DNA of 64,000 nucleotides from Nemertoderma westbladi (taxonomy: Eukaryota; Animalia; Xenacoelomorpha), in assembly GCA_032718475.1 (NCBI GenBank), contig JAUCBJ010006756.1, positions 1 to 64,000 of the forward strand, in the 5' to 3' direction. Of the stretch, positions 1,266 through 41,164 are shown in pieces; the stretch's first letter is position 1; each line of letters opens with the position of its first letter. Under the pieces are notes generated by a model that had not been told where the DNA came from, made no database searches, and worked only from the letters and a program-made list of their open reading frames with translations. The position numbers and the translations under genes are program-made.

Positions 1266-1284
1266 CTCTTCCAGCAGCAGGTGT

Positions 1285-2176: not shown

Positions 2177-2241
2177 TCGTTGTCTCTTTTATTTGAAATA
2201 AAAAGTCGTTTCCTTATCGGGCCGCTAGGCCCATCACTAGT

Positions 2242-4610: not shown

Positions 4611-7600
4611 TGTTCGCGCTTTTAGACCTTTAGCAGTTTAACCTGCCAAATTTAGGTGTCTTCTAGGTTATAAATCGACTTTAGCCTATGACAAGTATTT
4701 GATACACTACATTAGCCGAAGCCAGCCTATGCGCGACCATTCACCCACTGGATTTACCCGGGAGACTGGATTCGGATGCTCTGACCTTATTGCGGTGTAG
4801 GCCTACTGTATTATTCGATTGATCGTTAATATATAATCTCTGACAAATATTATTCACTTTCGGGAAATATTAACAGTTCCTTTAGGACGTGGCGCTCTAA
4901 GTATGTAAACAGAGTTATGACTTACACTAAACACAACGGGATGGCTAATGATTCACGTATAAAGCGCATTCTTTAGGAGATGCTTTGTTATCTATCACAC
5001 TCATGCACACTACCGCACAATGCTGCACACCGATCTGTCGACCTTCACTAATTTTAATCATATATAAGGAGAACAGCAACCGACACATGTAGTGCCTATG
5101 AAATAGCATTAGATTCACTCCAAAACCACTATAATGTAAGTCGCAATTGCTATATGTAACCGGTCTCTCTAACCTTCAGTATATCAAGAAGATTGGGGTT
5201 TTCTGATTATTTATCGATATTCTCCAAATATAACAATATTCCATCAACTGATACAATTAATAACCGACAGTAAATAGCAGTAAAATAATGCGGTGTTTGT
5301 ATGTGACCAGGTTTGTTATGAGTTCGTTAGATAGAATAACAGTTATACGTTTCTATGATCAAAGCCGTTCTAATGTTTTGCTAAAGTCTGAAACACAGAA
5401 TAATTCCACAGCCGATGTTCTAGGCATAGGAAAAAAGGTAAACATAAACCAGCCCTGCAAACAATTTAACGTTAATGATGCATTAATATACGTTATTTTC
5501 TGACAATGCCAACGTTAATTATTAACGTAAAAAATAGATATAAATAACGTTAGTTTGGCCGCCCTTTTAACGTTAAAAATTAACGCAAATTAACGTTAAT
5601 TTTAAACGGTAGTGATTTGGATCGTCAAAATATATTGCATGTTTAACGTTAAAAAATGACATATTACTGACAATCACTTTGGATCGTTGGAATATATTGT
5701 ATGTTTAACGTTAAAAAATTACATATTACACTCATATTAAACAGTTAGGGTAGGGTGGGTTGACCTCAGGTGACTAATGGAATTAATAACATCAGTTAAA
5801 TTAAAAGCTTTCTCCCATCAGGGCTTCTTCGGGTAATTAATAAAAATGCATACAAACAGATCTCACCAATCAATTTTCAGATTTGAAATCCTCTATTTTA
5901 TGTCTTTTGTATTGCACTTAGGCTCATTTTCCTTTGTAACACTAGGCCCTATACATATGTGTGACTTACGGTCCTTTTACATTGAATTGCTCGAGAACTA
6001 GAGTAGATTGCACGGCAGATATGTCCTACTACACCCCCCCCCCCCCCACACTACTGACGAGGTACGTCCAACTAAGCACCCTTCCCCATCCCCAGTGTTG
6101 AGGTACGACCGAATACCCCCCCCCCCCCCGGATAATATTATGTTATCATGAAACATTTTACTATTACGTCTACATGATATCCCATTTTGACCCTAGAAAT
6201 AAAAAAATAAATTTGGATAACCCCACATTGTTTCATTGCAAAATACAGTAGGATATCTGAAATAAAACTAATTGAAAAATGGGGTATCCCCTAATTAAAC
6301 ACCTTAATTAACATAACACTAATTGCCATAAATATTTGTAATTAGTTACCAGATTCGATGGAAGGAATTAATTTATAGTTATTACCAATTCTCTATATCT
6401 CTATATTAGTTTTTAAGCTGATATTATATCATTTAAGGAGTTCGGACGCAGTGAGGGTAGGGAGATCAAATTTCATACTAATTTGGTAACCCGGTACTAA
6501 ATTGCCAATTGGGGTGTCGTTTCAGTCTTCCCATAAGGTTAATGTTAAATTAAATATTGAAAACTTAGTGCCTAGATGTAAAAATTGTCCTGTAAATTGT
6601 GCTCCAAAATTTAGTTTATTGTTTTGGTTAGAAAAGCCTGCTTGCTACTAATTGCTCATTTCCTTTAAAATGTACATGGCTTAAATGGTGAAATCTTATC
6701 AACATTAAATATTCACGAAATTAAGTTAATTATATGTTAAAATAGGCTGAAACGACACCACAATTGGTAATATGCAAACCGGGCTCCATGTCATTTGTTA
6801 CGGATTATTTAGAAAAACGCTGGTCTTTTTGACTCGGCGAATAAGCCACACTTGGAATTGTCCATAAACGCTATTTAAACTATTGAACGGTAGTTTGTTT
6901 TTTCAGTGTAGTACACATGATCTCAACTGAACAATACACATGTGATACATTTAGTATAATTCAGATGGTTAGGTCAGGTTATTAACTCAACCAGCTACTC
7001 TAGACAGGAAAAAAGATGACCCCGTATTCACAAATTCTGTTTACTACTTATTTCAACAATACAACAGAGAGACCACAGGTGAGTCAACAGAGCGAACCAA
7101 TGAGAGTCAAATAAGAGACAACTGTTGAGTCAACCGAAAGAATATGTATGAGTATTTTCAGGACACATTATCCTGAATAATAATGAATATGTGATAGATT
7201 GCCCACAGATACGGTCAAATTCTTACTGTTTATAGTGATGTAATTAAGCGCAATCTCCTGGTAGAATACAGTATAACACTGGTATTGCCGATAAAATAGG
7301 AATCGTGTTGATCAAGTTTTTCGATTTGTAAATGTATGTGGTAGTCAGTTACTGTAACTCTTGGTAACCTTAATTAGGTCCATGGCCCAAAGTATGTCTC
7401 GTTTCTTTCGTCACCTCCAATAATATCGCATTCGTACAAAGTTAGTTTATCAATTAGTTTTTTTCGTCTCCTGAACATTTCGTCGCTAAAACCATTTTGT
7501 TTTTTATCGATATATAATCTTCAATAAAATTACTTAATAAAAGTCAAAACGTTATGACCATGAAGATGGAATTGTCAATAAAATTTATGCCCTGGCTATA

Positions 7601-8468
7601 CTGTACGCTTGGATGCTGACTAGTAAGGAAAATATTTAAAAATAATATTTGAAAAATTACACTCGTATCACAAAAATTTAACAAAATACGAAATGAACAA
7701 AGTCATCGGATGGTCAGCTAGACATAGATATGTTATCCATTGATAAATCAGTTAAGTGATTCACTAATCATTGTTAAAATCTGATGTATTTTAATGCTAA
7801 ATTAACGTTAATAATGAACGTTAAAAATTAACGTTAAAAATTAACATTAAAGTAACGTTAAAAAATATGGTATTGTCAGATAATTGTCTATTTTTGACGT
7901 ATAATTACTGTAAAAAATTAACGTTAAAAATTAACATTAAAGTAACGTTAAAAAATATGGTATTTATCAGATAATTGTCTATTTTTGACGTATAATTACT
8001 GTAAAAAATTAACGTTAAAAATTGACAGAATTTTAACGTATTTTAACGTAGGTTTATGGTTAAATTCTAACTGTCATTTTTTAACGAATGTCTAACATAA
8101 ACCCAACGTTAGATTAACGTTGGTGGTTTGCAGGGAGAATGCATTGCGCGATTTCCCGGAGGTTTCTGTACAAATAAAATGAAAATCGCTCTGATTGGTC
8201 GACCGAACAAAGAACAAAGAAAAAGTTACACGTGGACATATCAGCTGATAGATGTCGTCATAAGAACTTACACTGTATCAAGAGTATTTTGGCGTATTGC
8301 GACATAAAATCGCTAGTTATGTCCGCTAAAGTACACATACAGAAGAAATGGCTTTTTATGTCCACTAAAACACCAGTACAGTAAGGAAACGGCTTTTTAT
8401 GTCCGCTAAAACACCTACAGAGTACTTTGCGGGGAAAATGACTAGCTAATTCCGCAAAAGCCTTTACA
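4611..8468 (-). repeat. 3' LTR of element A (interrupted by a DNA transposon at 5453-8135)
   Basis: Matches 39744-40627; TGTTCGCG...CCTTTACA; adjacent purine-rich tract (sense CTGGGAGCGG, 8469-8478). Confidence 0.93.
5453..8135. mobile_element. Non-autonomous DNA transposon, probably CMC/EnSpm(CACTA)-like, 2683 bp
   Basis: TIRs CCCTGCAAAC / GTTTGCAGGG, 2-bp TSD AG (empty site AAACCAGAATGC in the other LTR), dense subterminal AACGTT motifs at both ends, no ORF; superfamily inferred from CCC ends plus 2-bp TSD. Confidence 0.8.
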
Positions 8469-8546: not shown

Positions 8547-10098
8547 TTAGTCTTTCTTGCGAGGATGGCGTTTACGCAGTTTTTTGAGGCTAGCAAGAGT
8601 CCTTTTCTCTTTGGGGCGAGCCACTTTACTAGGAGGGCTATAACTCCTGGGTGAAGGGTGCAATACAATTGCATCGGAAGGTTTAGGATTACGATCGATG
8701 TATCCGCCGGTCGAGGTACCTGGTTGATCTATATCAACCTCAGTGGAACGAGGTCGAACAACCTGGAGAGCGCATTTTAAGACAGCAGCTCTTATTGGTC
8801 CCTGACGGGTCGTTTGCACGAAAGCGGTAAGTGGACCGTGTGTAGTAAGAAATTTCCTCGGTTTGATAATTCTTTTCAACTCGCGTTCTCGGGCTCTATC
8901 AGAATCGATATGCTTCTCCTCGAGCTGATTTTCCTCCGCTTTGCATTGAAAGCATTCGTCCAAAACTCTTGCAGAAAGTAGAGTCGTCCAAGTTCGATAT
9001 CTTCTTAGGGATTCCGGATTTCCTGATCGAACTGAGATAAAGCTAATTCGTTTACCGCTTGGACTTGCTGCTGCAATTTACGTTTCTCTAAACAATTGTA
9101 GGTTCCTTTTCCGATCTTTTGACGAATAGTGTCCAACGCGTTTCGTACAACTCTCTCCTCCGCCTCGGTGACAGGTTGTATCGGGTTAAACAGGGACGAT
9201 GATACGGTTGAATGGCGATATTAGATGTCCGCGTCTCAATCCGACTAAGTAAGATGGGTGAATATTTAGGGAGCCCACAACCGGAGTGCCACCGACTAAC
9301 TGTTCGGGTAACACTAGATCTTTGAACAGTGAGTACAGTTCGGGAGGATCCGTGATACTATTAGGATCAAGAGTCTGAGGTCTAACTAGGGAATGAGGAG
9401 GTCTGACCGAGTATTCCGGAACTCTGATCATAGGTTTATTTAAGGATCGTTTGAATCGAGCGAGCGTAGGTGATACATCGAACAAGTTTCGCTTGAAACT
9501 CCCGTAAATATAGCGAGTAAAACCGTGTTTAAAGCAACGTCTCCGCGGATGTTTATGTCTTTCCGTTTGTTGGTTGGGTCTTGGGCATTCATCGCAATAA
9601 TACCAAAGACGCACGTCTTGTAGGGGAAACGCGGGTGATATTTATTCGGTTTTACAACGTTTCTCTCAAGAATTCCAAATATACGTTGGAGTTACTGCGT
9701 TTATCCGGTTCTTTAACGTCTTCTCTTTCGAGTCGATTTCGAATAGAATTTTTGCGTTCGATTTTCAGTTTATCGTTCCGACTCCGCTGGGTAGGATATT
9801 TAAATAGTACCATTTCCCTTTCGGTGTCGACATCATCCGTATCGTGTAAATCGATAGGATGACCAGTAGTTAAGAAGTCCATATGCGTACCATTACGATG
9901 CGTATAGCGAGCAGTGAATTTTCGATAGTCAAATTCACGCGTAAGTTGCTCCTGGGACATCGGCGGTTCGATATAACGACCATTGTCCTCCGTAGTAGTT
10001 GGACTAGCGTTGCTGCGTATCAAGCTATCAATAAACGCTTGCAACGGTAGAGTATATTTCTCCCTGATACCAAGATCATCTTCTATCAACTCAGTCAT
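8547..10098 (-). pseudogene. Fragmented accessory ORF of element A between pol and the PPT, unknown function
   Basis: Consecutive minus-strand ORFs 10098-9652, 9614-9186 and 8963-8547 (last two in one frame, separated by two stops); more GC-rich than the flanks; basic C-terminus LKKLRKRHPRKKD. Confidence 0.55.
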
Positions 10099-11855
10099 AG
10101 CTGCTATATGAGTTTATCAATATTATAATTAGTTATAATTAGGCTAGCGAGCGTCGCTGCCTACCCCACTCGGCCCCTGGACAGCGCAAGATCCTCAGCG
10201 CTGGTGTACTTTCGCCGATGTGCCTATCGCCAACATAGTAGCTGCACAACGACCACAACAACCAGCGTGAGTCACTCCACCGTCCGTCCCAAAGGCTTAG
10301 ATTTACTTCAGGTTCTTACTGGAGAGTTAGGGCTACTTTCACAATTGCGACTCGCTACTGTAAACACACTTTAGTATAACATTCACCTATAAACGCACAA
10401 ATTCCACACAACTGTCACAAACCGCACACATTCGGGCCATTTGTCCGTTAGTCAAGTGCCTTCCAGAATGCCACGTTATTATTGGGTATCCTTGGATACT
10501 AGCAGTGTGCTATTTATTCCTTATGCTATTCAATAGGGCAAGGTTTTATTGTGCTTTTAACTCACTTCTATTTCTAGCGTGGTGGTTGCCATGGTGACAT
10601 TATGGAAAGCTAGCGGTAGAATTAGGGTAATTCCCATGCATACAGATCTGGGATGCTATTTAATAGTAATTCTTTAATTGTCAATATCTCCCTTATACAT
10701 GATTTTATGAATTTTTATCGGCTATTGACTATATATTGGAGATTCTCGCACACTAATACACTTAATAGGGTGAATCTCTGCTCCCATGATCTATTAATTA
10801 ATGGAATTTTGGGAATGTTATAAATTGCATAAAAATGACAATTTATCAAATTCATTAAAAGATATGAATTTAAATTTATTCCCGTAAATTTTATTATTTA
10901 ATATTAAATAGACACAATTTTATTCCAGAGCATGTCTGGGGACTAGGATCCTGAATTCTAGGAAATTTGTCCTTTTAAGAGTATCGGTAAGTGCAACGAT
11001 ATCTTAATAGACTAGAATTTTAAAGGATCTAAAATTTTACAGATTTTAATTTATAGAATTTCTAGAGTTAACTTGTAAGTAGTTACTCTATTGTATCTAT
11101 TTGACAGATTTTATAAATATTAATAGTTAATATTTAAGATGGGCACCGATTTATTCCAGAACATGTCTGGGGACGTTAACCACTGATTCTAGAATTTTGT
11201 CTTTCAAGTATATCGGTGGGTGCCGCGATATCTTAATCGACTAGAATTACAGATGGTCAAAGGGTTTAACAGATTTATTTTGCGATTTACGCTACTGTTA
11301 AAGGGACATCACGCTACTATATGTATTATTTAATATACGGTATGAGAGCAATATCGCAAGAAGCAATGTCAGTGAGAGGAGGCAAGTCGTTTCCAAGGTC
11401 TACCCAGAGCTTGGTTTAGCCGAGACACGAGGATCTGAATTTTGCATTGCTAATACTCTACTTACCAATAATACTTGAATATAGTAGGAGCTTTATTGTA
11501 CTTTAATAAGTACGGACATTTCATCTTACTGTAGTCACGTATTTATAATGTAATATGGACAGTAAGGAAAGAGAAAAAGAATTATTTCTCGCCGTCGCAC
11601 TAAATATAATATATAAGTAATTAAGTAATAAACGCGAATATATATATGGCACTAATCTACTAAATAATCGCTAAAATAACATTCTACTAAATAAAATTAA
11701 AGAAAACGATTATAATAAAATTACATAATGATACATACATAAATATAAAATAATAAGAACAAATATAAAATAATATAGTCACACACCCACTCCAGATGCT
11801 GTCACGTTGGGGAGTCCCTAGATATTTGTTGGATTAGGGAGGTGGTCGTGGGAAG

Positions 11856-12428
11856 TGTTCGCGGCGGAACTACTGAACTGAGTAATCTGATGATGAACTG
11901 AAATGTGTACTGTATCTGCATTCTAATTCTATTGAGAACAATAGTCTACGCCGCTAAACTATGTTCCATTTTGGTTGATCGCTAATTCTGTCTGCATGGA
12001 CTGATGGAAAAGGTTTAAAGACAGTTGTTGTGACATCTTACATTGTATTTGGAAATGTAGTAATTGTAATTACCATAGGCGAATGAATATGACTAAACTA
12101 AAGTATCTAAATATTATACTGCCGGACTGGATATTATCTAAAGTAAAGATCTACTAAGGCTGCAATGTCTGAATGTAAAAGAAAGGGTGCTGAATTCTGA
12201 ATGAAGGAGTACTGAAGTAGGAAAGCGGAAAAGGCAGAAAAAGTAATAACCAAATTTGTGGGAAAAATGTTGTGATTGAAATAGAATACAGAATGAATCG
12301 GAAAGTCTGATGGTTGAGCTTTATATACGGTCTGAATCTGAATGCTGATTGGTTACTCTATTCTGAGACATACTGTACAGTATGTCGAATAAATATATTT
12401 TGTTGAAAATGGCATTTCGCCGATGACA
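11856..12428 (-). repeat. 3' LTR of element B (573 bp)
   Basis: Near-identical to 28010-28591; TGTTCGCG...GATGACA. Confidence 0.95.
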
Positions 12429-13618: not shown

Positions 13619-16234
13619 TCATTGACTTGATTTGTCAATAGCTGCTTCCAGTAAGCATAATTTATGAATAGGGCGAACGTGTGAACCAGATGACGTTTTG
13701 ACTTTCACAGATCTGACAATGTGGTCATTGTCGGGGAAAGTCTCAATAACTACCCCAGTTTGCCATTTATTTCTGGGCAAGTCATCTTCATGCACAAGTA
13801 CCACATCACTTACCTGCAGGTTATGGACTAGTTTTGCCCACTTACTGCGAAGTGGGAGAGACGTTATATACTCACGGGTCCACTGTGTCCAAAAGCGGTT
13901 TGACAACACCTGTACTTGTTTCCAAGTTTTGGGGCTATATAATATAGCCCCAAAACTTGGAAATATATATGTCTGAATCATCAATATCACCAATAGGGAC
14001 ATCGATGGCACTGTCTTGCAGAAGCAGACGGCGCGGTGTGATTACCTGGTCTCCTGAGGGATCATCGGATACAACACATATAGGCCTACCATTGACAATG
14101 GATTCGACTTCTGATAGTGTTGTAATTAATATATCGTCCGTTACTAATGCTTGCCCAAGGACTGTATGGAGAACATTCTTACATGACTGAATGAGGCGTT
14201 CATACACACCTCCCATATGAGGAGCCCTTGGGGTATTAAACTTCCACTCAACGCCTAACAGTCTTAGATTGTTACTAATACGTTCGTTACTGTCCTGTAT
14301 TGTCGCTTCAATTTCATTTGCGGCACCAACAAAATTAGTGCCATTATCAGAAAATATTTGAATAGGGGTTCCTCTCCGATTGATGAAACGCCTCAGTACA
14401 TTAATAAAGGCATCTGCAGAATAATTAACTGCCACATCTAGATGAATGGCTCGAGAATTGAGGCAAGTTAATAATATAGGCCATCGTTTGACTGAACCAC
14501 GGCCATATTTCGTGCGAAGGGGGCCAAAGGCATCTACTGCTGAGAAGGTAAAAGGAGGTTCATAAGGAGTCAGACGTTGTGGAGGTAGTGAGGCCATCAA
14601 TTAGTTGCCACGAGGTGCATGCGTTTTCCTACAGATGAAACAATTCTGAACCATTTGTCTGCATAACGAATAAAGAGCGAGTATCCAGAACGTTTGTCTT
14701 ATTTCTGTAGCAACATGAGAATATCCTACATGACCAAGGCGTTTATGTGTACTTAACACAATGGATTGAGCGAGGTGATGTTTTGAATCTAAAATTATTG
14801 GATATTTGGCATCATAGCTGACAGGTGCCGCGGTAATACGACCACCAACACGTAAGAGACCATCATCGGTTAGAAATGGCCTGAGTTTGCTTAACGGACT
14901 ATTTATGCTCAACTGAGCACCTGAGTTGAGACAACTGATTTCTTTGGGGAACATTTGTCTTTGCACAAAATAGATAATTCGGTATCCAGAGTGTTTCATC
15001 TCTGGGTGAGTTATTGGGGTGCCTCTTTGAGGAACTACGAATTTGGAGGATATAGAGAAGTGGATGAGGCGCAATAACCAGGCAAAGATAATTCGTAATT
15101 TATTCCAACTGAAGTGAAGTTTCAACAATCGATCAATGGCTGAAACAAAGTACTCTGAATCCTCTGATTGAATGGAATGTACAATGTCTTCATCACAATT
15201 ATCAAGAATGTAGTTTACATATTCTGGAATGGACTCAAAGTCATCAGTTGTAACATGGGAATTGATGTTTGAATTTGCTTCCATTGAACATTCTTCCAAG
15301 TCGACATGGTCATTGGAAAATGTAGTATTAAGGGAAGATAGGAATTTGGGTCCATGCCACCAACTGTCTGAATTAAGAAGTTGTAGAGTTGTGGAACCTC
15401 TACTGGCTAAGTCAGCAGGATTCTCATTTCCTGAAACATGATACCACTGATTGCGGTCTGAATATAGAAGGATATGGGAAACGCGCTGCATGACATACAT
15501 TGGGAATGATTTAGAAGAGTTGTGGATGTACCCAAGAGTTACTGTGGAATCAGACCAGAAATAGGTGGAAGCAATTTGAATGCGGGGTTTAAGATTATCT
15601 AGAAGCATCTGGCCAATGTCAGAAGCTAGCACTGCTGCTTGAAGTTCCAGCTTAGGGACAGTTGGTGCAGATGCAGTCACAGAACGTACTAAACGTGATT
15701 TGGAATAAACTAATGAGACATAGCAGTTTTCCGAAATGATGCGAAGATAAGCCACTACACCATAAGCTGAAATCGAAGCATCAGAAAATATGTGTAGTTC
15801 ATTTAAAGATAAATTGTTATCACAAAGTCCAGTATAACACCTAGGAATAATTAGGGCTGAGAGGTCAGATAATTGATTCAGCCAAGACTGCCATTTCTTT
15901 GCGAGTCTGGCGGGCAGGAGATCATCCCATGAAAGATTTATCAGCCACATTTCACGAATAATAAGGCGACCCTTCAGAATGATCGGAGAAATCCAACCGA
16001 GTGGGTCGTAGATAGTGGCATTTTCAGAAAGGGCAATTCGTTTTGTGTAATATTCACGTTGTTTGGGGTGGAAATTGAATATGAAGCTGTCTGATGATGT
16101 ATCCCAGAGAATTCCAAGAGCTCTGGATACATTAAGATGATCAAGATCTATATTAACTTTACATGGAGCACGCTCACTTACAGGGAAGTGGTTAATGAAT
16201 TCTTCTGAATTGGAAATAAACTTTGTAAGACGAA
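13619..16234 (-). pseudogene. pol: Element B pol, 3' part: end of RT, Pao-type RNase H region, integrase and C-terminal domain
   Basis: LHIFSDAS, NPADLASRG, H..H..CxxC zinc finger, VDAFGP, SDNGTNF, GGVYERLI, VRPIHKLCLLE; in-frame stop at 14601-14603 and frameshift at ~13940. Confidence 0.92.
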
Positions 16235-16508
16235 TGTAAGGGAAATACCCAAACATGAAACAGTACGACACTGTCAAGTATAATAAAACGTAAAAGGTCT
16301 CATAAACTAATAACTGTATAATATAATAAGATAGAACTGACAGGAATATAATATAACAGTATAGAACCACACAGTAAGGGACGCATCAGCTGGATAGCCC
16401 AATCACCATGATAGTCACTATGAATATAATCAACTTACAATGAGTAAACTAATAACTACTATATATGGATAATATATGACCTATCTATACACGAATATAT
16501 TTCGTACA
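16235..16508 (-). repeat. 3' LTR of element C (274 bp)
   Basis: TGTAAGGG...CGTACA, near-identical to 22602-22879; adjacent sense GGCGCGCGGGAG tract. Confidence 0.95.
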
Positions 16509-22585: not shown

Positions 22586-22598
22586 GGTCCAGGCACCA
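22586..22598 (-). promoter_or_regulatory. tRNA-type primer-binding site of element C
   Basis: Sense TGGTGCCTGGACC 3 nt after the 5' LTR; TGG complements tRNA CCA; cognate tRNA not determined. Confidence 0.75.
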
Positions 22599-22601: not shown

Positions 22602-22879
22602 TGTAAGGGAAATACCCAAACATGAAACAGTACGACACTGTCAAGTATAATAAAACGTAAAAGGTCTCATAAACTAATAACTGTATAATATAATAAGATA
22701 GAACTGACAGGAATATAATATAACAGTATAGAACCACACAGTAAGGGACGCATCAGCTGGATAGCCCAATCACCATGATAGTCACTATGAATATAATCAA
22801 CTTACAATGAGTAAACTAATAACTACTATATATGGATAATATATGGATAATATATCTATACACGAATATATTTCGTACA
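22602..22879 (-). repeat. 5' LTR of element C (278 bp)
   Basis: Direct repeat of 16235-16508. Confidence 0.95.
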
Positions 22880-27177: not shown

Positions 27178-28009
27178 GCTGTGTTCCTGCGTTGTCAGTA
27201 CAGCAGTATATACCTGATTGCGAACCCAGTCAGCTGCAGCTCGTAGAACGGAATTGATCTCTGAAGCTGAACGTAGTTATTCGCGGTACCGGTATTATCG
27301 ATGGTATCGCGGTTTGAATTAAAGGCCTAAGGGTCTAATATTTAGGGGAGTATGGGCTGACAGGCTGACATAGGCTTAGCAGAAGATGGAAGCTTAAAGG
27401 CAGTGCAGTAGGCTATATGTCTGATATGTACGGCAATACTGTAGGCAATACTAGGCCTATAGGGCCTAATAATATTGTACCGGTACGTATTTATCAAGTT
27501 CCTGAGTTCTGATTACAACAGTACAAACTAATAGTTGGATAAGCGTATGCTAGAAAACTGACCTGAATTTATGTATAGCTGTCTGGCCTACCAGCAGGTT
27601 TCTAGGCCTACCTACAAAATAATCTTGAAAGTCTGATATTGGACTATACAGATACAGAGATACATTTACAGGAACATAGGCCTATGCAATCTCGATTACA
27701 GTACACAATAGGATGATAGGGCAGTCAGGCAGTAGGACCATATGGGGCCTAGGCTGCTAGATACCATAAGGCTTATATTGTAATAAGCATATCTGCAGAT
27801 CTGCCTATATATGTATATATATATCTGATGTACCGGTCTGCCGGTACTACTGCTACTGTAGTAGGCAGGGCTGCAGGGTGAAGGAATGCCGGAATATTTG
27901 AAATGTCTAACTGTCTGAATATGTGTAGAGTACCGGTAAGGTAGCTTAAAAAATTAAATTTGGTTATAATGGAATGACTGAATCATATTCGATTAAAATT
28001 TGGTTATAA

Positions 28010-28591
28010 TGTTCGCGGCGGAACTACTGAACTGAGTAATCTGATGATGAACTGAAATGTGTACTGTATCTGCATTCTAATTCTATTGAGAACAAACTTG
28101 GAAACAAAAAAACGCCGCTAAACTATGTTCCATTTTGGTTGATCGCTAATTCTGTCTGCATGGACTGATGGAAAAGGTTTAAAGACAGTTGTTGTGACAT
28201 CTTACATTTTATTTGGAAATGTAGTAATTGTAATTACCATAGGCGAATGAATATGACTAAACTAAAGTATCTAAATATTATACTGCCGGACTGGATATTA
28301 TCTAAAGTAAAGATCTACTAAGGCTGCAATGTCTGAATGTAAAAGAAAGGGTGCTGAATTCTGAATGAAGGAGTACTGAAGTAGGAAAGCGGAAAAGGCA
28401 GAAAAAGTAATAACCAAATTTGTGGGAAAAATGTTGTGATTGAAATAGAATACAGAATGAATCGGAAAGTCTGATGGTTGAGCTTTATATACGGTCTGAA
28501 TCTGAATGCTGATTGGTTACTCTATTCTGAGACATACTGTACAGTATGTCGAATAAATATATTTGTTGAAAATGGCATTTCGCCGATGACA
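28010..28591 (-). repeat. 5' LTR of element B (582 bp)
   Basis: Direct repeat of 11856-12428 with one short replaced segment near 28095-28112. Confidence 0.95.
28455..28518 (-). promoter_or_regulatory. Putative core promoter in the B LTR (CCAAT, TATATAAA, Inr-like TCATTC)
   Basis: Sense CCAAT ~28512-28516, TATATAAA 28491-28484, TCATTC 28460-28455; spacing fits Pol II, function inferred. Confidence 0.55.
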
Positions 28592-31500
28592 GGAAGAGTA
28601 TCTTGCCTTCCATAGTTTCCGGAGAGTTCTCTGTCTCTTTCCAGTAAACATAAACGACCAACTGGGCGATTGAGCTGCTGTGTCTCGAAGACAATTCCCG
28701 GTTTCTTAAAGTTACGTTGCATGACGACGAGTTCTACCGATCGCACCAAACCATCATCCGAGATATGAGTCTCGATGATACGACCTGTCTGCCACTGCTT
28801 ACGTGGAAGATCTGAATCCACAATAAGGACCATGTCTCCAGCGCTGACGTTTTCTTGCTGCGCAAACCACTTAGTTCGAAGTTATAGCGTAGGCAGATAA
28901 TGTTTTTCGAAATGGTCAGCGAAACGACGGGATAACAACTGCATAAGTTGCCAAGTTTGCCGGCAGTATTCGTCTCCGTCCGTGATTTCCGATCGTGGGA
29001 GCATGGCTACAGGTTTCTTCAGTAGGAAGTGCGCGGGTGTCAGCGCTTCCAGGGAATCGGGACTCGATGAGACTGGCATAAGCGGTCTCTCGTTGAGATA
29101 GGCGGCGATTTCCTCCATTAACGCCTGCAAAAGTTCGTCGGTGAGATACGCGCGGCACGGCACTATAAAGTGAAATGCGGTCTTCACGCTCCTGATTAAT
29201 CTCTCACAACTTCCTCCCCACCAAGGGGCGTCGGCGGCGTTGAAGGTCCAGCTAGACGCTGTTACCCTTAGCTGATCGTCCACCTGTCTTTGGTTCCAAT
29301 CCTTGACGTAAGCCTTGATTTCATTGTTGGCACCAATGAAGTTAGTTCCCTTATCAGATCTCATCGTGTTACTAGTTCCAAAGCGAGCGATCTGTCGGCG
29401 TAAGCTCAATATGAAGCTATTGGTAGGTAAATCGTTCACCATATCAAGATGGATAGCTCTACAAGTCATACAGACAAAGATGACACACCATCTCTTGACT
29501 ATAGTCCTAGCACGATATACTTCAATAGGGCCAAATAGATCCACACCGGTATTAGTAAAGGGTGGTTCATAGAAGCTTACTCGTTCCCTAGGTAATTCTG
29601 CCTCTCGCTGTGTTAAAGGCCTACTGAATGCTTTCCTACAGGGTATGCAGTTCCTAAGAACTTGGTTCAGAGCTCTACGGGGTTTATAAAAATAATAGCG
29701 AGTTTGAATTTCGCTAAGAACTCGTTCTCTACCAGCATGATAAAGCTTACTGTGAACATCTACAATCATCTTGATTTGTATTTCAAGATTTCTAATGAGT
29801 ATGGGAAACTGAGTGTCAAAGGATAATGGAGCATTAGTTAGTCTTCCTCCAACACGTATTAACCCATCTATCATTGTGCTAGAGAAACGATCCCTTAAGC
29901 GCATCTGTGGATTTCTCAACAACAGGAAATACTTATCGGAATCCTCATAGCATTGCAGGAGTCTCAGTATCTGCTTATTGGTTTCTTCATGCTCCTGGTA
30001 ACTGATCTTCTCCTTCAGAAACCTGTCGGATATCTTGTATTTGGGAAGATCTTTAACAACATGGACCTGCGCAGATGTCAGTGGAGCAGTATCACTAGTG
30101 GTCTTCGTCCTGGAGTAGTGATGATGAAAACATCGCTTTAAATATGTAACGGCCTTACAGAGCCGATTCCAGGAACTATAATGATGTATCGCTCTCTGCA
30201 GGAGAGGTGAGAGTCCTTGCGAGACGTCTGGTATTCCAGATTTCCAATCCCTCTCTCCTAACCAGTCTGGAGTATCTATCAGTTCTTGTGGAGTTGCTCC
30301 CCTGGAGGCGATGTCGGCCAGATTAATCGTTCCGGGGCAATGTCTCCATTGATCTATCTTCGTGCGACTAAATATAATGGCTACTCTGTTGGTAATGAAG
30401 ACGCTGAACTGACAGACTTCATTGGGTAAACTTCATCGAGTAAAGCATCGGTCCAATAGACAGTTTTCTCCAGTGGATAGTCGATCTGTTCTGTTACATT
30501 CCATCCGATGGCTGTAGCGTATAGAGCCGCCTTTAACTCCGCTCGAGGAACTTTCAACTTGTTGTTTATCAAGGCCTTAGAGGTAACCAAGGTGACCTTG
30601 ATTCCATCCGGAGTTTCAACTCTCAGGTAGGCTACTATACCTATTCCCATATCGCTGGCGTCTCCAAACACATGGAGTTGATAAGAATACGTAGGGAGAA
30701 CATGACCAAAATATGAATGGGAAATTATAAAGTTCTCGATGGCTGGTAGATAATCTTCCCATTTCATCCACTTCTTTAATAGTTCTCCCTTAAGTGGATC
30801 GTCCCATGAGTGGTTTTCAAGCCACATTTGTTGTACTAAACTCCGAGCAATCAATATAACTGGGCTAATAAATCCCAATGGATCGAAATAAGTGCTCAGG
30901 ATACTTAGACAAATCCGTTTAGTCCGAACTGGATTATCTCGCTGTTTTAGCTGGAAAAACAGGATATCTCTCTCTGTGTCCCATTTCAAACCAAGTGTCT
31001 TGGTTTCTGGAAGATCGTCTTTGATTAGGTCTAGATCTTTAACTCCTCGATCTTCTACCGGGATCGATTCCAGAAACTCACGGGAGTTGCTGGTGAATTT
31101 AGTTAATCGAAATCCACCTCTTTTTAAGCACTCTACCATTCCTTTGGCGACATCAATGGCTTCTTCCACTGATGGGAGGGACTTTAAATTGTCGTCCATG
31201 TATATATCCCGTTTGATGTTGTCGATCACCTCTTTAGAGAAGGCGTCCCGGTTGTCATCAGCAGTGGTGCGCACTACTGAGCAGGCGTTTGAAGGGCTCG
31301 AGATGATCCCAAAAGCCTGGATGGTCATCCAGTACTCCACCGGTTTCTGGTTGAGGTCTCCCTCAGGCCACCACAGAAATCGTAGGCTGTCTCGATCCCT
31401 ATCCAGCGCCTTAACTTGTAAGAACATGCCTATATCTGAGGCAAAAGCGATTGAATATTGTCGTAATCTTAAGAGTATTCCCAACAAGGATTGGAGTAAG

Positions 31501-33590
31501 TTGGGTCCTGGCAACAACTCGGAATTGAGGGATTGGCCCATGTAGAGGGCGGAGCCGTCAAATACTACCCGGACTTCGTTGGGTTTACTGGGTTTGGGAA
31601 CGTAATGATGTGTAAGATAGTACGTTCTCGCAGTTATGGGTGTTTCTTCTGGTACTCGCTCCGCATATCCCTTGTCAATAAATTTCTTCAACTGAATTTT
31701 GTACATTTCCTTAGCTGAAGCATTTGCCGTAAGGCGTCGATGTAGTTGCGCAAATATTTTCTCCGCCAAAGGTCGGTTGTTTATAAATATAGGTTCTCGC
31801 TTTCGAAATGGCAGACCAATTTCATATCTAACTTGATCTTTAAGAAAAAGTGTAGTTGTTTCCTGTATCTGCTTGGCTCTTTCTTCTTCTACTGATAGGG
31901 CCTTATCGTAGGAATTGGGCTCTACAGCCTCTTGAGTAAAGAATCGTACGGCATGTTCATCCCGAGTCTTCACGTTGTAGCGAACTATCACGTCATTCAG
32001 TTCGCCGTTATAGTCGACTGGTCCTGATGGACGAATGAGGAGTTGACATAGGTTCACTTGGTTTTGCCAAGTTTCGTTTTCCGTAAGGAGGTCGATGGTA
32101 TTCTCCTTGTCGAAGAGTTGGTGGATATCGTCATTATCTGAGGAGTATGGTGTTCCCTCAGTTGTGTCGTCTACCTCACTGCTCTCCGCTTCCCATTCAC
32201 TTACCTGGTAGACCCGTTCTTTGGGTAACCTTTCCATGAGAGTTCTATGGGAAGGGCCAGTAAAGTACCAACCTACTCTAGTTCTTCCCGCATAGGTTTG
32301 TAGTGGTTGCGGTTGAGCAGGCCGTTTCTCCAATGTCTCAAGCACCTCATGCGCATTTTGGACGATGAGTATTTGCACTCCAGGGTAGTCTGTGTTGAAT
32401 CTAGGTATCTTATGCTGCTGGGTGAAATCGTCCTCATCCCAGTTATAAGGTTCCACTTGGCTGGTAGCGAAGTTCTTTATCGCCACCATTTTTACTGACC
32501 TTATACTGTGTTCTCCTAGTTCATCCTGGGGGGTGGACAACGCACCTACATAGTAATCTGCAATTACTGTAGATTTCCAAACCTGCATAATTCCTGACAT
32601 GTTTAACTTAGTTCGGAACTTGGGTTGTCCAGCAAAGATGTCTTCGGCTAGTTCTTTGTTGATGAATGTTCCTGTGCTGCCGGAGTCAAGGAGGGCGTTC
32701 ACTATATAACTCTTTTTAGGCCCGTGGACTCTCAACTGCACTACGGGAAATTCTCGGATTCCTACATTGGAAGTTGGTGCTTTCCAAGATGGTTGTCGGT
32801 CAGGAGCAGTTGGGGGAAGCTCACTATCGGTTTCTTTCTCATACGTAAGTGCTCGATACACTGCGGTATTTATTAGGTAACAGGATTCGTTTTCGTCGGA
32901 GAATTCATCCGTATAGAATCCTTCCATCTCAGAACTTTGGTCCGTGTTGTTCACATCACTGAATTGGACATGTAGTTCGGGCTCACTTACCTGACTCGGG
33001 CTGTTTCTTTCGAATTCAGTGTGCAACAAGATATGATGTTTCGTGCCGCACTTTGCACACCTTGCGTCAGAGTAACAGGTTCGCCGTTGGTGTCCTTGTC
33101 TGAGGCAATTATAACACAACCGCTTATCCCACATGACTTCACGTCTATCTTGTAGTGATTTCTTTAAAAATTTATCACACACACTTAAATGGTGGGGCCC
33201 GTCGCACAGCGCACAATTTGGTTTGATGTTACTCACCTTACCTTGGGTAACGTTGTGCACTCTCGTTCTTTCCTCGGGCTTTCTTCCGTGAACTCTATTA
33301 GGAGACGTAGGAGGAGTTTTTGTTACCTGTTCTCTCCTGTCATTGGTTCGAGACTTAAATTTACTTACGTCTTTAGGCGCTTTGTTGACATAGTAAGATC
33401 TTTCTGTGTCTTTCCCGCTGTCCTCTTCTTGAGAAGCCTGGCTTTCGCCATCGTCTGTATAACACACTGGTGTTACCTTTCTCCTAGAAACGGGTTTCTC
33501 ACTTACCTTATTTTCCGGTGTCTTCTCTCTGGACTGCTTTAGGAGCTGTAATTTTACTTCTCCATCTAAGAATGACATGAGATCGGCCAT
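28592..33590 (-). pseudogene. pol: Element A pol (knuckles, protease, RT, RNase H, integrase) with several stops and frameshifts
   Basis: CALC/CYNC/CAKC knuckles, LLDSGS, YMDD, VFGDAS, GVDLFGP, SDKGTNF, GGSCERLI; the last ~16 codons resume beyond B at 11850-~11802. Confidence 0.93.
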
Positions 33591-33602
33591 GGTAGGGTCT
33601 TG

Positions 33603-36600
33603 TCATTGTTGTTCCATCATATATAACACTTTCTTATCCCAGCGTGTACCTACTCCACCCTTTGGTAAAGTAGATGCTACGGCTCCAATAACCATAGAAC
33701 TCTGATATTCATGAGACTTACCTAGCCAATCTAATTGTCTACAGATCTCCTGAATCTCATCGGAAAACTCTATAATCCCGCTGCTAATGAACTTTCGGGG
33801 CGCTACCAATTTTGCATACAAATACCTAGCTATGTTATTCCTATTACCATACCTGATGTTTAGTGTATCCCAAACTTGTCTTAATCCATCTGGATGTCCA
33901 ATAAACTTTAACGCCATTAACTTGGGAGATCCTTCCAAGCACTCAATGAGGAATCTAAGTTTCTCTCCGTTAGATAGCACAGAGTTCTGTATGTTATCTT
34001 TATAATATTCATTAAAAGGTAACCATTTCATCTCATCTCCATTGAACTTGACGATCTCTCCCACTTTACCGCTTGACGGGCTTCGGTTCTAGCCATTTGA
34101 CGCGTAAAACTTTCTTGGGCCATCGTGTTATTTAATATCGAGTTATCGGTATATAAATTTCTCGGATTATGATCAGGTCTATAAGGAATATCATTGTCAA
34201 CAGGTTTATAATTACCCCTAATAGGGTTCACTATAGGAGTTTTTACTTCACTAGCAGTATAGATGCGTGTAGGCTCCACACCTTGCGCATGAAATACTTC
34301 AGACCTAACAGGTTGACACATTGTTACCGGGGTTGGTGGTATACCCCTTTGGGTATTTACTAATTTATCGCGTTCTAACGCGATACTCTGCTGCACTTCT
34401 TGCAACTCTAACTTACTTTCCCTTACTGTGCCCTTGAACTGCTGAACAGTCTCCTGCATCTGCCCGAGCAGGAGATCCATCCCCCGCCGTCTCTCATCCA
34501 CCCACTCGACCGCCGAAGCGGGAGCCGCCAACATAGTAGCGGGTGGACGAGGGACAACGGGCGACAAATCATTAATATTTCGCTCGGAGTCCAGGACAGG
34601 AACTGTCTCAGGGGCCGTTCTGCTGGGCACAGGTAGTTTAGTACTGTGCAAAGGGAATTTAGAGGTAGGTTCTGGGAGTACAGGTGTCTCTATCACCGAA
34701 GGGGTGGCTTCGAGAACAGGCCTAATTATTTCAGGCTCATCTATTATAGTAGGGAGTCTTGCTACCCTAATAATTTTGTCTGTGGGTTCTGTACTACCTA
34801 AGTCTGTGCTAGCTAGTTGCCTTCTAACAGCTGGGGGCAAATCAGGCAATTTCTGACGGTGGGGCATTCTTCTATGCCTGCTTAGACGAGATCTATTTCT
34901 TCCGCCTTCAGGATCGGTGGTATCGCCTTCATCAGATGATGTAAATCCCTGCCTTTTGGGAGTAGATAGACTTATCATCTGCATTTGACTAGCTGTTAAC
35001 TGTTTATTTATGCAGTCTTGCTTCTCTTGAAGATTTTCCAACTCTAGTTGGGTGGTCTCTTCAGACGCTCTCCGTTCTGCTTCCGCCACTGCTAATTTTC
35101 TTTCCGCTTCTGCCGCTGCCACTGCCGCTTTTCTTTCCACTTCAGCCGCTGCCTCTGCTGCTTTTCTTTCCGCTTCTGCCGCTGCCTCTGCCGCTTTTCT
35201 TTCCACTTCTGCCTCTGCTGCTGCCGCTGCTGCTATCTTTCTGTCTTCTATACGTTTTTTCTTTACTTGTTCTTCTTGGACTCTAGCGATGCGGAGGCGT
35301 TCATCAAATTTAGCTTGGTTCGCAGCTAACATTTCCGCATCTATTGCATCCAACACAAGCTTGGCTCCTTCACTATTAGGGCGAAGTCCAGCCAGCCGTC
35401 TCCTCAACTCTTCATCACCTAGAAATCGTTGATAGTCTGACAGATAGATGTCAATAGCGTCCCTCTGCTGCGGTTTCTCTGCTGTCGCTTCGCTTTCCAC
35501 TTGAGAAAAGGTAGCGTCTGTTGATTCTCCATGGGTTGAGCGCTCAGCCAGCTGAGATTTCCACTGGGCCATTCCTTGAACCTTAAGACCCACCCGCTGG
35601 AACCAAGTCTTTATGGCAACTTGCAACGACGTGTATTGTCTTCTTTTCGAAGCTTCCTCAAAGGCAGATAAGATTAGTCTGATTCTTAGAATTCTTTCTC
35701 TAACTTGATAAAGCAGCTCTCCCTGCTCTTGAGGTCCTTGGCGTTGTTGAAACAGTTGTTCCTCATCATTAAATCATTAATATTTCGCTCGGAGTCCAGG
35801 ACAGGAACTGTCTCAGGGGCCGTTCTGCTGGGCACAGGTAGTTTAGTACTGTGCAAAGGGAATTTAGAGGTAGGTTCTGGGAGTACAGGTGTCTCTATCA
35901 CCGAAGGGGTGGCTTCGAGAACAGGCCTAATTATTTCAGGCTCATCTATTATAGTAGGGAGTCTTGCTACCCTAATAATTTTGTCTGTGGGTTCTGTACT
36001 ACCTAAGTCTGTGCTAGCTAGTTGCCTTCTAACAGCTGGGGGCAAATCAGGCAATTTCTGACGGTGGGGCATTCTTCTATGCCTGCTTAGACGAGATCTA
36101 TTTCTTCCGCCTTCAGGATTGGTGGTATCGCCTTCATCAGATGATGTAAATCCCTGCCTTTTGGGAGTAGATAGACTTATCATCTGCATTTGACTAGCTG
36201 TTAACTGTTTATTTATGCAGTCTTGCTTCTCTTGAAGATTTTCCAACTCTAGTTGGGTGGTCTCTTCAGACGCTCTCCGTTCTGCTTCCGCCACTGCTAA
36301 TTTTCTTTCCGCTTCTGCCGCTGCCACTGCCACTTTTCTTTCCACTTCAGCCGCTGCCTCTGCTGCTTTTCTTTCCGCTTCTGCCGCTGCCTCTGCCGCT
36401 TTTCTTTCCACTTCTGCCTCTGCTGCTGCCGCTGCTGCTATCTTTCTGTCTTCTATACGTTTTTTCTTTACTTGTTCTTCTTGGACTCTAGCGATGCGGA
36501 GGCGTTCATCAAATTTAGCTTGGTTCGCAGCTAACATTTCCGCATCTATTGCGTCCAACACAAGCTTGGCTCCTTCACTATTAGGGCGAAGTCCAGCCAG

Positions 36601-37620
36601 CCGTCTCCTCAACTCTTCATCACCTAGAAATCGTTGATAGTCTGACAGATAGATGTCAATAGCGTCCCTCTGCTGCGGTTTCTCTGCTGTCGCTTCGCTT
36701 TCCACTTGAGAAAAGATAGCGTCTGTTGATTCTCCATGGGTTGAGCGCTCAGCCAGCTGAGATTTCCACTGGGCCGTTCCTTGAACCTTGAGACCCACCC
36801 GCTGGAACCAAGTCTTTATGGCAACTTGCAACGATGTGTCTTGTCTTCTTTTCGAAGCTTCCTCAAAGGCAGATAAGATTAGTCTGATTCTTAGAATTCT
36901 TTCTCTAACTTGATAAAGCAGCTCTCCCTGCTCTTGAGGTCCTTGGGGTTGTTGAAACAGTTGTTCCTCTAATCGCTCCAAAGAGCTGAAGAATCCCTGT
37001 ACATATCCTGCTGCCAACCTCTTCCACACAGCTGGATCACTAGTGTCCTTTGTCACTCCCATCCTGTGTATGTCTTCCCAGGCAGCTTCCGATAAGTCAA
37101 ACGGGAGTCCGGGTCCGGGGAAGTTCCATTGCGACTCGACAATAGACTTCAGTTCCTCCCTTGTGTATCCCGCAAAACTATCCTTGGTCGATCGCTTACT
37201 TCTCGCCCAATCAATTTGGTGTTCCTCCACCGCAATCAATACCCTAGTGAGTACGGCTGCAGGAAGGATGAGAAGGGGATCCGAATAAACCGCATCTGCC
37301 ATCTTTGCTCCACGCTCGGGTGTCAGCTCTACAGTATCCGAACTACTGGAGCTGTCGTGCCGCTGAGAAATAAGTTCTCGGCTCGAGTGTTGCTGCTGTT
37401 TAACAGCTGCTTCTTGGTCCCGCTTGACTTGAGCCCGAGTGCCTATGATAGACCTATGGTGTTTGACTAGCCTAGGGTCTGATACTATTACTGGAGGGAT
37501 GACTTTTCTTACAGTAGGAGGTGAGTTGAACTTCGGTCTCAAATGTTCAGCACTCCTATCTGGGTCACAGATGGTTGTGTCTAGGAGACTGTCTGACAGG
37601 TTTTGCTTTGTGTCAGACAT
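33603..37620 (-). pseudogene. gag: Element A gag with Ala/Glu-rich coiled-coil repeat, disrupted by an internal duplication
   Basis: IVKFNGDEMKWLPF...EKLRFLIECL...IRYG; AEAERKAAEAA repeats; ORFs 37620-35686, 35626-34028, 34064-33603. Confidence 0.85.
34566..36969. repeat. 1199-bp tandem duplication in A gag with 6-bp filler
   Basis: 34566-35764 matches 35771-36969; filler ATCATT at 35765-35770. Confidence 0.93.
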
Positions 37621-37749
37621 GTTTGTTTGTACAGTTGAATGCCTACTGCTATATTACAGTTAAAGCAAGTCTAGTAATTCAGTATCAACTGTTAGCCTAG
37701 TAATTAATTACCGATATCGTTACTCAGTGTAACGTGATATATTTACAAT

Positions 37750-38185
37750 ATATTAGAATACCGATATGCACTTATAGTATATATATAAGTATTATTACAG
37801 ACTAGTTTTGTCACAGAATACCGGTATATAATTTCAGCGCAAATATATAGAATATATAATAAGCCTATCGTGAATACCGGTATACAGCTTACACTTATAG
37901 TATATATAAGTATAATTATAGTCTAGAATTAATTACAGAATACCGGTATATAATTTCAGCACAAATATATAGAAATATATAATAAGCCTATCGTGAATAC
38001 CGGTATACAGCTTACACTTATAGTATATATAAGTACAATTATAGACTAAAATTAATTACAGAATACCGGTATATAATTTCAGCACAAATATATAGAAATA
38101 TAATAAGCCTATCATGAATACCGGTATATAATTTCAGCACAAATATATAGAAATATAATAAGCCTATCGTGAATACCGGTATATC
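37750..38185. repeat. ~55/120-bp tandem repeats in the 5' UTR of A built on GAATACCGGTATA
   Basis: Seven TACCGGTA cores in ~370 bp. Confidence 0.85.
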
Positions 38186-39743
38186 AATTATTTTAGAATA
38201 ATTGAATTTCTGAATTTTAGGGTTACTTGGTTACTTTACTTTACTTTATTACCGTTATTTAAGCAGTAGTCCAACTGATATTAAGACCTAATTGTTGTAT
38301 AACAGGCCTACTATTTTATAAATCTATTTGAGTTGATTTATAATATATATATACCCGTATAATGGGTTTTTGTCAATATTTGAAATAAATGTTATTATTT
38401 CTGGGAAAGAGTCACTGCACAGAAGCTGTACGCTCTCAGTGAAGTGCTACTGGTTGGACACTAAAACAAATAATTCTAATTTGCCTAAGTTACTTAATAC
38501 TACAAATTACGTACAATTACAGGGTGAGATTACAATCTCTAAATAAACACAAAAATTACACGTACGAATTTTTAGGGTAATTTTACAAGAAGTCTACAAA
38601 CCAGCCTAACTAAGGGTTAGAATATCTGGCTATTACAAACGGACAGGATACTACGGTATTTGAAAGTAATAAAGCAGTAGTAAATATACTGCGTTGTCCA
38701 GATAGGAAAAATACCACCGTCTGATGACTTATAGCCATAACGCTATAAGTACTACATTATGTATCACGGAGTGTTCCTACCTAGAAGTTAATTACCGCGG
38801 CCTACCAGAGCCAACGTGCCTATTAACCACTTTACAACACAAATATACTGCCTACACACTAATTACCTTCGGAAAGCACTGTACACTAAACCCTAAATTA
38901 GGTACAAGTACTTATACAATAAATAACCATCAGTTAAAAATACTTGTACAGCTAAAAGAACCACGGTATCTGCCGGAGTGACCAAAGCATAAAATCTCCA
39001 GTCTTTACCTACGCCAAACAGCCCTGATGTAGTACCGGGGTTAATTTAACTATAACGGAATGTATAACAAGCACAATTACTGTAGGAATAAACTTGGGGT
39101 TTGTATGTTGCGAATAATCGCATAAACTCTGAATAATAAATATTACGCTACCCGTACAGACTACACAAACAAAATACAAACCAAATGCTGGCAGACTACT
39201 ATCAAGCCTAAATAAACAACAGTATATGCAGACTCCGAAATGGTTAGTTAGTATGCGTTCTAACCGAGTAGTACGACTTATTCTTTCGGGGGGGGGGGGG
39301 GATTTACCTTACAGCACTGGAAGCCCCTACGTTCCTAACTAGTACTTTATCGGACATACACTCTACACACACTGCAATCTCTTCAGACTTAACAACAGCC
39401 AGACAACAATCCAGCCTACAAATTATCTGTACAATCTGAGCAGGCTTACACGCCTTCTGTTCAATATTATCTTTCAAATAAATAAAACTGACAGAAATAG
39501 GCCTAAGTAAAATCCCAATAAAAACCAGGCGTCCCCGATTAAATATTAAGACCTACCGGTATATAATTATCAAATCGAATAATACTGCTGTACCTGTACT
39601 GCTGTAAGTACCGGTTGGGTGGTTAGGCAGTCAGGCCTACTGGTTACCGGTCGACCGGTACTTTACAACTGTTATTGTTCTTACCAGAACAATATTAAAC
39701 TGTATTTATTGCCTACACTGCAATCAGAAGATATAACTGTTAT

Positions 39744-40627
39744 TGTTCGCGCTTTTAGACCTTTAGCAGTTTAACCTGCCAAATTTAGGTGTCTTCTAGG
39801 TTATAAATCGACTTTAGCCTATGACAAGTATTTGATACACTACATTAGCCGAAGCCAGCACACTGATCACACACTGCACACTGATCTGCCGACCTTCACT
39901 AATTTTAATCATATATAAGGAGAAGAGCAACCGACACATGTAGTGCCTATGAAATAGCATTAGATTCACTCCAAGACCACTATAATGTAAGTCGCAATTG
40001 CTATATGTAACCGGTCTCTCTAACCTTCAGTATATCAAGAAGATTGGGGTTTTCTGATTATTTATCGATATACTCCAAATATAACAATATTCCATCAACT
40101 GATACAATTAATAACCGACAGTAAATAGCAGTAAAATAATGCGGTGTTTGTATGTGACCAGGTTTGTTATGAGTTCGTTAGATAGAATAACAGTTATACG
40201 TTTCTATGATCAAAGCCGTTCTAATGTTTTGCTAAAGTCTGAAACACAGAATAATTCCACAGCCGATGTTCTAGGCTTAGGAAAAAAGGTAAACATAAAC
40301 CAGAATGCATTGCGCGATTTCCCGGAGGTTTCTGTACAAATAAAATGAAAATCGCTCTGATTGGTCGACCGAACAAAGAAAAAGTTACACGTGGACATAT
40401 CAGCTGATAGATGTCGTCATCAGAACTTACACTGTATCAAGAGTATTTTGGCGTATTGCGACATAAAATCGCTAGTTATGTCCGATAAAGTACACATACA
40501 GAAGAAATGGCTTTTTATGTCCACTAAAACACCGGTACAGTAAGGAAACGGCTTTTTATGTCCGCTAAAACACCTACAGAGTACTTTGGGTGGAAAATGA
40601 CTAGCTAATTCCGCAAAAGCCTTTACA
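39744..40627 (-). repeat. 5' LTR of element A (884 bp)
   Basis: Direct repeat of 4611-8468 minus the DNA transposon and a ~280-bp segment. Confidence 0.93.
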
Positions 40628-41164
40628 CTTTGTCCAAATTCGATGGGGTTTTTATTTTTCAACTTAATTCGATGTCCTCTTTCAGCCTATCCATGTTTCA
40701 AAAACCCAAACAGCGCCGTTCAAAAATTAATTTTTTCTAGTTCTAGAATTTTACAAATTTCAAAAAAGTTGCAGTATTTTATTAACGCCTGTACGGAATT
40801 CGATAGCGTTTTCGATTTTTATATTAAACACAATATCCTGAATCTCATTAGCCTAGTTTCGCGTCACCAATGCCAAGACTTCATATTTTTTGAGGAAAAT
40901 TTTTCTAGAATAATTTTTATTTAATTACATTTATAGCGATTTCTTATTACTGGTTGCACATGAATTGAGTTTTCAATTTATTAACTAAACACGATATCGC
41001 GCATCGCACCAGCGTGGTTTCGAAATTCCAAAACGAGGTCTTCACTAGTTGCAGGTCGATTTTGTTCTGGAATTGAGCAACTAATATTAGATCGAATTTA
41101 TTAATAATTATTGTATGAAATATGATTGTATTTTTACATAATTATTAGTTCTATCAAATATTAG

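Follow-up and report, generated by a model that had tools for sequence, protein, structure and literature searches.

Self-priming of reverse transcription is established for Tf1 (PMC7175516). In the accessible parts of the papers concerned it is also reported for the Tf1/sushi group and Tj1 and predicted for Tcn1 and TAR (PMC7175516, PMC4600332, PMC6317226, PMC2864245, PMC5443660, PMC3601003). Tf1/Tf2 of Schizosaccharomyces pombe, Tj1 of S. japonicus and the Tf1/sushi elements are described there as having no tRNA site, and in them 11–13 nt of LTR RNA from the element itself are complementary to a site just past the 5' LTR (PMC7175516, PMC4600332). The corresponding sequence rule, at least 10 bp of the LTR complementary to a region starting 0–5 nt after the 5' LTR, is also the one by which self-priming is predicted for Tcn1 chromoviruses and for the plant Ty1/copia elements TAR, Houba and Osr-1; the accessible text deals with plant Ty3/gypsy and Ty1/copia lineages and names no BEL/Pao case (PMC6317226). 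In the fungal copia element GalEa there is no primer-binding site (PBS) and a palindrome that includes the final A of the LTR occupies its position, as far as the available text goes (PMC5445492).

For BEL/Pao elements the ICTV description of the Belpaoviridae gives priming by host tRNA at an 18-nt site complementary to tRNA-Arg or tRNA-Gly, and calls replication poorly understood (PMC8742986). A term search of the accessible text of PMC554778, PMC3118150, PMC6238403 and PMC12440569 returned no mention of a primer or PBS, and the available part of PMC8220671 gives only a general scheme of priming. No paper on self-priming in BEL/Pao was found among the literature matches listed, the scope of which excluded most subscription papers, GyDB, Repbase and supplements.

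The window analysed here, a stretch of 64,000 nt from Nemertoderma westbladi, contains three LTR retrotransposons nested on the minus strand between 4611 and 40627, with C inside B and B inside A (Table 1). Each has its own 5-bp target-site duplication (TSD), the LTR pairs are 96–100% alike, and no further LTRs of A or B are present in the window. All three are BEL/Pao by Pfam, with DUF1759 in gag and Peptidase_A17 and Integrase_H2C2 in pol (E-values in A of 9.7e-13, 4.7e-34 and 9.6e-7, respectively). With the Belpaoviridae (genus Semotivirus) A shares the DUF1759 gag, the Pao RNase H (Peptidase_A17), the order RT–RH–IN, LTRs within 0.2–1.2 kb and a 5-bp TSD (PMC8742986); its LTRs are direct repeats of the form TG...CA and a purine tract precedes the 3' LTR. 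The Pfam matches are Pao-type and not those of the Ty3/gypsy chromovirus pol that marks Tf1/sushi. Homologues of the A pol, 33–42% identical, come from marine invertebrates, fish and an insect (120 of 376 listed), and PF05380 is present in all 120 of those listed. Element A, on the minus strand, is a high-copy BEL/Pao LTR retrotransposon and is broken: its frames are interrupted, B is inserted within it and its gag carries a tandem duplication of 1.2 kb (34566–36969, 99% alike).

Both ends of the A LTR are fixed by the TSD CAAAG. The first-pass annotation had put the start of this LTR at about 40310, and it must be moved to 40627. The misplacement arose because a 2.7-kb inverted-repeat element splits the partner LTR (8468–4611) and hides its first 325 bp. 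This insert (5453–8135), in which no stop-free frame of 70 amino acids occurs and whose terminal inverted repeats read CCCTGCAAAC, is probably a non-autonomous DNA transposon. A 278-bp U5 segment is absent from the A 5' LTR and present in its 3' LTR and in contigs from public sequencing runs. Between the A pol and the 3' LTR (8547–10113, minus strand) lie extra frames of 83–176 amino acids, one of them Cys/His-rich; none of three gave a Pfam match and the one tried gave no usable Atlas match. A 45-bp near-perfect palindrome (13919–13963) is found at the end of the integrase frame of B. The flanks (1–4600 and 40630–64000) are dense repeat, with 10-bp and 22-bp tandem arrays and dispersed repeats, and A lies inside one such repeat. 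No tRNA genes occur in the window, and Rfam has no matches in 37600–41000.

Table 1. Features of elements A, B and C in the window (positions on the 64,000-nt stretch; TATA-like box, intron and self-primer are predictions)
Feature	Position	Strand	Remarks
A TSD CAAAG, upstream copy	40628..40632	-	other copy 4606-4610
A 5' LTR	39744..40627	-	884 bp, TGT...ACA
TATA-like box CATAAAAAG, predicted	40511..40519	-	motif scan; second copy at 40560
Second long-range arm at predicted transcript start	40477..40493	-	17-bp complement of 39342-39358
Predicted GT-AG intron within A LTR, upstream of primer segment	40239..40430	-	motif scan
A in-LTR complementary segment, predicted self-primer	40186..40198	-	LTR nt 430-442
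ATTAAA polyadenylation-type signal	39904..39909	-	followed by GT-rich stretch
A post-LTR site at primer-binding position	39732..39744	-	12 nt plus last base of LTR, no TGG
Small hairpin just 3' of post-LTR site	39708..39724	-	folding; longer covarying versions in other family contigs
8-bp hairpin burying start of duplicate	39673..39694	.	arm also fits true LTR end junction
Duplicate of A LTR end (5 nt) and post-LTR site	39664..39680	-	one A-to-G change, still G-U pairing
Leader arm of 17-bp helix	39342..39358	-	386 nt past LTR; encloses 13-bp helix
A gag region	33603..37653	-	several frames; 1.2-kb tandem duplication; DUF1759
A pol region	28882..33602	-	two frames: RT with YMDD, Pao RNase H (Peptidase_A17), integrase zinc finger
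A 3' LTR	4611..8468	-	inverted-repeat element at about 5453-8135; 13-mer copy 5335-5347
B 5' LTR	28010..28591	-	3' LTR 11856-12428; TSD CTTCC; nested in A
B in-LTR segment	28410..28421	-	complement of 27996-28007 and of duplicate 27956-27967
B post-LTR site	27996..28007	-	after TT spacer, no TGG
C 5' LTR	22602..22879	-	3' LTR 16235-16508; TSD TTCGT; nested in B
C TGG-type primer-binding site, control	22586..22598	-	after TTT spacer; TGG 3 nt from LTR end

The strings quoted for element A in the first-pass annotation are all present at the positions given: TATAACTGTTATT at 39732, AATAACAGTTATA at 40186 and 5335, and AACTGTTATTGTTC at 39667 and 39735. The 12 nt past the 5' LTR, taken together with the last base of the LTR, form a perfect complement of an internal LTR segment. 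The proposed 13-bp reverse complement is therefore perfect, but it is not wholly outside the LTR, since 39744 is the terminal LTR base and only 12 nt lie beyond it. No TGG is found at the LTR edge, as had been stated; the nearest one is 57 nt beyond and is too distant from the LTR end to be accepted as the PBS of A. The tRNA site described by the ICTV is absent from both A and B, while C has a TGG site. By its proteins A is BEL/Pao, yet it departs from the described priming feature.

We compared the longest perfect LTR complement starting 0–5 nt after the LTR with that obtained from dinucleotide shuffles of the LTR. Element A has 12 bp at a spacer of 0, a length reached in five of 5000 shuffles. 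The Tf1-type feature, at least 10 bp of LTR complement starting within this interval, is found in A, in B and in five relatives. In a blind scan of the 87 ACA/TCA sites in 41000–37700 the sole match of at least 10 bp falls at the true LTR end of A. The scan background is six of 1172 sites with at least 10 bp and a single site with 12 bp, which is the LTR end of B. A splice-made extension of the match was sought at GT-AG junctions in A, B and C and none was found. The match in A is real and not due to chance.

The 12-bp own-LTR match of B, the letters of which are unlike those of A, is reached in one of 5000 shuffles. There is no TGG in the first 80 nt past its LTR, and the blind scan finds the match at the true LTR end and nowhere else among 88 sites. 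The LTRs of A and B share nothing beyond plus-strand words of 8–9 nt, in agreement with the earlier statement that they do not otherwise align. Their common CGCGAACA terminus is more simply read as a putative integrase attachment end, since the LTRs of relatives end in similar GC-rich...ACA strings. Element C, proposed as an internal control, serves fairly as one: in the shuffle test set it has no own-LTR match 0–5 nt after its LTR. RT identities are 38% for A–B, 29% for A–C and 31% for B–C.

Next, relatives were collected from metagenome contigs. The scan gave 29 loci, of which eight hold a whole LTR and leader and seven were scored; L005 was left out as its RT is identical to that of L004, and in the other 21 the whole LTR and leader are absent or could not be located. 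Relatives with the pol of A or C were absent from the viral contigs and those with the pol of B from the genome contigs. Five loci, with 41–47% RT identity to A, have a contiguous own-LTR match after a spacer of 3–4 nt: L002 (12 bp, two of 5000 shuffles), L007 (11 bp, 44 of 5000), L008 (11 bp, two of 5000), L011 (10 bp unspliced, 123 of 5000) and L012 (15 bp, none of 5000). L004 and L017 have no contiguous match. Across a predicted GT-AG junction L004 gains 11 bp and L011 14 bp, neither reached in 1000 shuffles. The predicted LTR introns span nt 194–294 in L004, where removal creates the match, and nt 257–365 in L011, where it lengthens the match from 10 to 14 bp. L017 has a changed donor and shows neither type of match. 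Among the seven relatives there are thus five contiguous matches of 10–15 bp, one that exists solely across a predicted splice junction and one failure; these relatives share ancestry, a point against the self-priming reading. None of the seven has a TGG within 5 nt of the LTR end.

Own-LTR matches measure 10–15 bp in the cross matrix and foreign ones 0–9 bp, with one foreign match of 11 bp. This is the match to the LTR of L012 that exceeds the unspliced 10 bp of L011, the sole exception to the rule that the own LTR is best. In every family the match begins 0–4 nt from the LTR end, the place required of a primer. This end is confirmed by a 3' junction (L006) for the L004 family and was placed by eye, with the match in view, in five relatives; in the loci, roughly 0.5–1% of ACA/TCA sites carry a background match of 10–12 bp. 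In all eight matches the final two letters of the LTR segment are A-C or A-T, suggesting a conserved primer end. Pairing is purely Watson–Crick in eight of nine cases. In an RT tree of 24 rows, built with no named references and leaving out eight loci with short segments, A and B are long unresolved branches and C is farthest. The earlier reading of the pairing as covariation-like support holds in part: a shared geometry with different letters is real in A, B and five families, but it is recurrence across families and not covariation demonstrated inside A.

Within family A six public runs contain the stretch or part of it, with thousands of contigs on it. For 39722–40262, 40 of 52 variant rows at ≥10% are listed, covering 31 of 35 places in run X1 and 36 of 41 in X3, and at these places neither 13-mer carries a variant at ≥10%. 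This is compatible with the proposal and not significant, because only about 1.5 variants are expected by estimate. Sites separated by 450 nt are beyond the phasing range of the short run contigs, in which no compensatory change appears; run X4 (RNA by guess) has no coverage of 40159–40262. With the extra 278 bp, the spacing of the arms is probably about 730 nt rather than 450 in the majority of family copies. Three other post-LTR versions are found in family-A contigs, one of them placed at the true LTR end only probably. The same start is apparently kept in them, and each has a hairpin of about 10 bp directly after the site with arms that change together. None has a TGG, nor was a TGG-bearing copy, which would have spoken against the proposal, seen among the displayed contigs.

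The duplicate of the post-LTR site is present and longer than described, comprising the last 5 nt of the LTR and the 12-mer with one G-U change, and the 8-bp hairpin said to overlap it is also there. As a feature common to A and B the duplication is not general: it is absent from some family-A contigs, and inspection by eye showed none in the five relatives whose match is contiguous. Folding led us to reject the duplicate as the working partner in A (pairing probability of 0.0 with the LTR segment). In the leader fold, the check suggested earlier, the 13-bp helix of A has predicted pairing probabilities of 0.82–1.0 at 12 of 13 pairs and 0.60–0.68 at the last for all five assumed starts, and 0.85–0.92 in a 1.3-kb fold. 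The fold of the whole leader is not unusually stable (z = -1.72, 20 shuffles). The helix of B is in the minimum-energy fold and not in the centroid, with a predicted probability of at most 0.02 at the first site and at most 0.2 at the duplicate, which in these models speaks against B folding spontaneously in cis.

A second inverted match of 17 bp (40477–40493/39342–39358) is perfect and is reached in none of 2000 shuffles. Its predicted pairing is 0.91–1.0 at 16 of 17 pairs, it folds together with the 13-bp primer helix, and its first arm starts 26 nt past the CATAAAAAG box, at the expected transcript start. Position 40485 of this arm differs in the A 3' LTR and in about 99% of the family depth in X1. 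In the predicted fold the 17-bp helix may clamp the initiation domain of A.

The segment of A lies 321 nt past the TATA-like box in the motif scan, or about 130 nt with the predicted intron removed; this intron has the sole strong donor, and its acceptor is one of four pyrimidine-rich ones. In B, L002, L008 and L012 the segment starts 53–70 nt past a TATA-like box. Thus, by motif scan the complementary segments are well downstream of the TATA-like boxes, whereas in Tf1 it is the first bases of the transcript that pair. Because the A segment is also upstream of the polyadenylation signal, it is predicted to be inside R and not at the cap, and the self-primer site would be 25–100 nt or more inside the transcript; in this model A differs from Tf1, where the segment is at the 5' end. 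The LTR of C, a tRNA-type element, also has a strong donor (nt 74) and an acceptor (nt 175), and LTR introns may therefore be common in BEL/Pao whatever the primer.

The edge of the A LTR carries no TGG, a perfect LTR complement takes its place, and B and five relative families have the same geometry. From this we judge, with a probability of roughly two in three, that in A the primer of minus-strand DNA synthesis is a piece of its own LTR RNA and not a host tRNA. Transcription would start upstream of the segment, probably near 40490, placing the segment within R. The segment would fold back onto the post-LTR site, and by analogy with Tf1 the RNase H of the element would cut on the 3' side of the segment, probably after ...GUUAU. 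Since the terminal base of the LTR is itself in the last pair of the 13-bp helix and must be copied, the cut is placed one base inward from the end of that helix. From the end so released, RT would copy U5 and R as far as the cut and then jump to the 3' copy of R. Because the primer would itself be copied during plus-strand synthesis, the perfect match between the two sites would be maintained. Whatever lies upstream of the cut, an intron included, would come from the 3' copy; since the 5' RNA upstream of the cut would not be copied, an intron could persist in the LTR.

The helix may instead be a structural RNA, such as a switch controlling whether the initiation site is exposed or an element for packaging or translation control, with something else as the primer. 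The stronger 17-bp helix of A lends this some weight, since at 386 nt from the LTR it cannot be a primer site and long-range pairing here need not mean priming. In GalEa, too, a conserved hairpin replaces the PBS, for which the accessible text offers no accepted model (PMC5445492). We consider this reading unlikely: the LTR edge offers no alternative primer site, and the start at 0–4 nt in every family together with the nearly exclusive Watson–Crick pairing would fit templated copying better than selection for structure.

Rather less probable is that the same sequence primes from the 3' copy of R or from the second RNA of a dimer rather than by a 5' fold-back. The segment is expected at both RNA ends as it is upstream of the polyadenylation signal, a distance of 170–450 nt or more separates the 5' arms, and the cis fold of B is poor. 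Against this, A folds well in cis, and a cut in the 3' R would damage the acceptor of strand transfer unless another RNA supplies it.

Priming by a host RNA that lacks a CCA end, such as a tRNA fragment or other small RNA, with the LTR match as a by-product, is improbable. Half-tRNA primers are known in Ty1/copia lineages according to the accessible text of PMC6317226, but each of the eight post-LTR sequences, all different, matches its own LTR, so such a primer would have to change with every family, and the LTR match would be left unexplained.

The AT-rich, quasi-palindromic nature of the A sites, rightly raised as a caveat, is real but small. That they are a protein-binding site or dimer signal present twice, with an incidental inverted match, is very improbable: the core is an interrupted palindrome with possible self-duplexes of -7.0 and -6.5 kcal/mol, but the hetero-duplex reaches -13.7 kcal/mol, the sites agree at 10 of 13 positions as a direct repeat and at 13 of 13 as an inverted repeat, so that all three discriminating positions favour the inverted one, and B (self-duplex of -0.2 kcal/mol) and, by eye, the relatives keep the geometry with non-palindromic sites. 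In this respect they also differ from the palindromic GalEa; A resembles it in the position of its site and in the inclusion of the final A of the LTR, but the partner in GalEa is downstream, with no complementary U5 sequence found in the available text, while that of A is inside the LTR (PMC5445492).

Self-priming from the LTR is thus the reading we retain; A would carry a modified form of an established mechanism, of which we found no report for this family. It differs from Tf1/sushi in that the latter belongs to the Ty3/gypsy superfamily and in that self-priming of A is a prediction from sequence. With less assurance, though still on the favourable side, we propose that tRNA priming has been lost in a broad animal BEL/Pao branch (about 40% RT identity), whose members would excise the primer from within their own R, in some families only once host splicing has joined the two halves. 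This would be an independent system, and in A the 17-bp helix would clamp the whole initiation domain.

How reverse transcription starts in BEL/Pao elements has so far been assumed and not shown. If the proposal is true, a self-primer would explain the missing PBS in such elements. They would be freed from the host tRNA supply and, by extension, perhaps from control by tRNA fragments, and annotation based on the PBS would miss them. With an internal primer, and in relatives one made by splicing, the Tf1 mechanism would no longer be confined to primers at the capped end. The proposal also specifies an exact RNA end that can be searched for.
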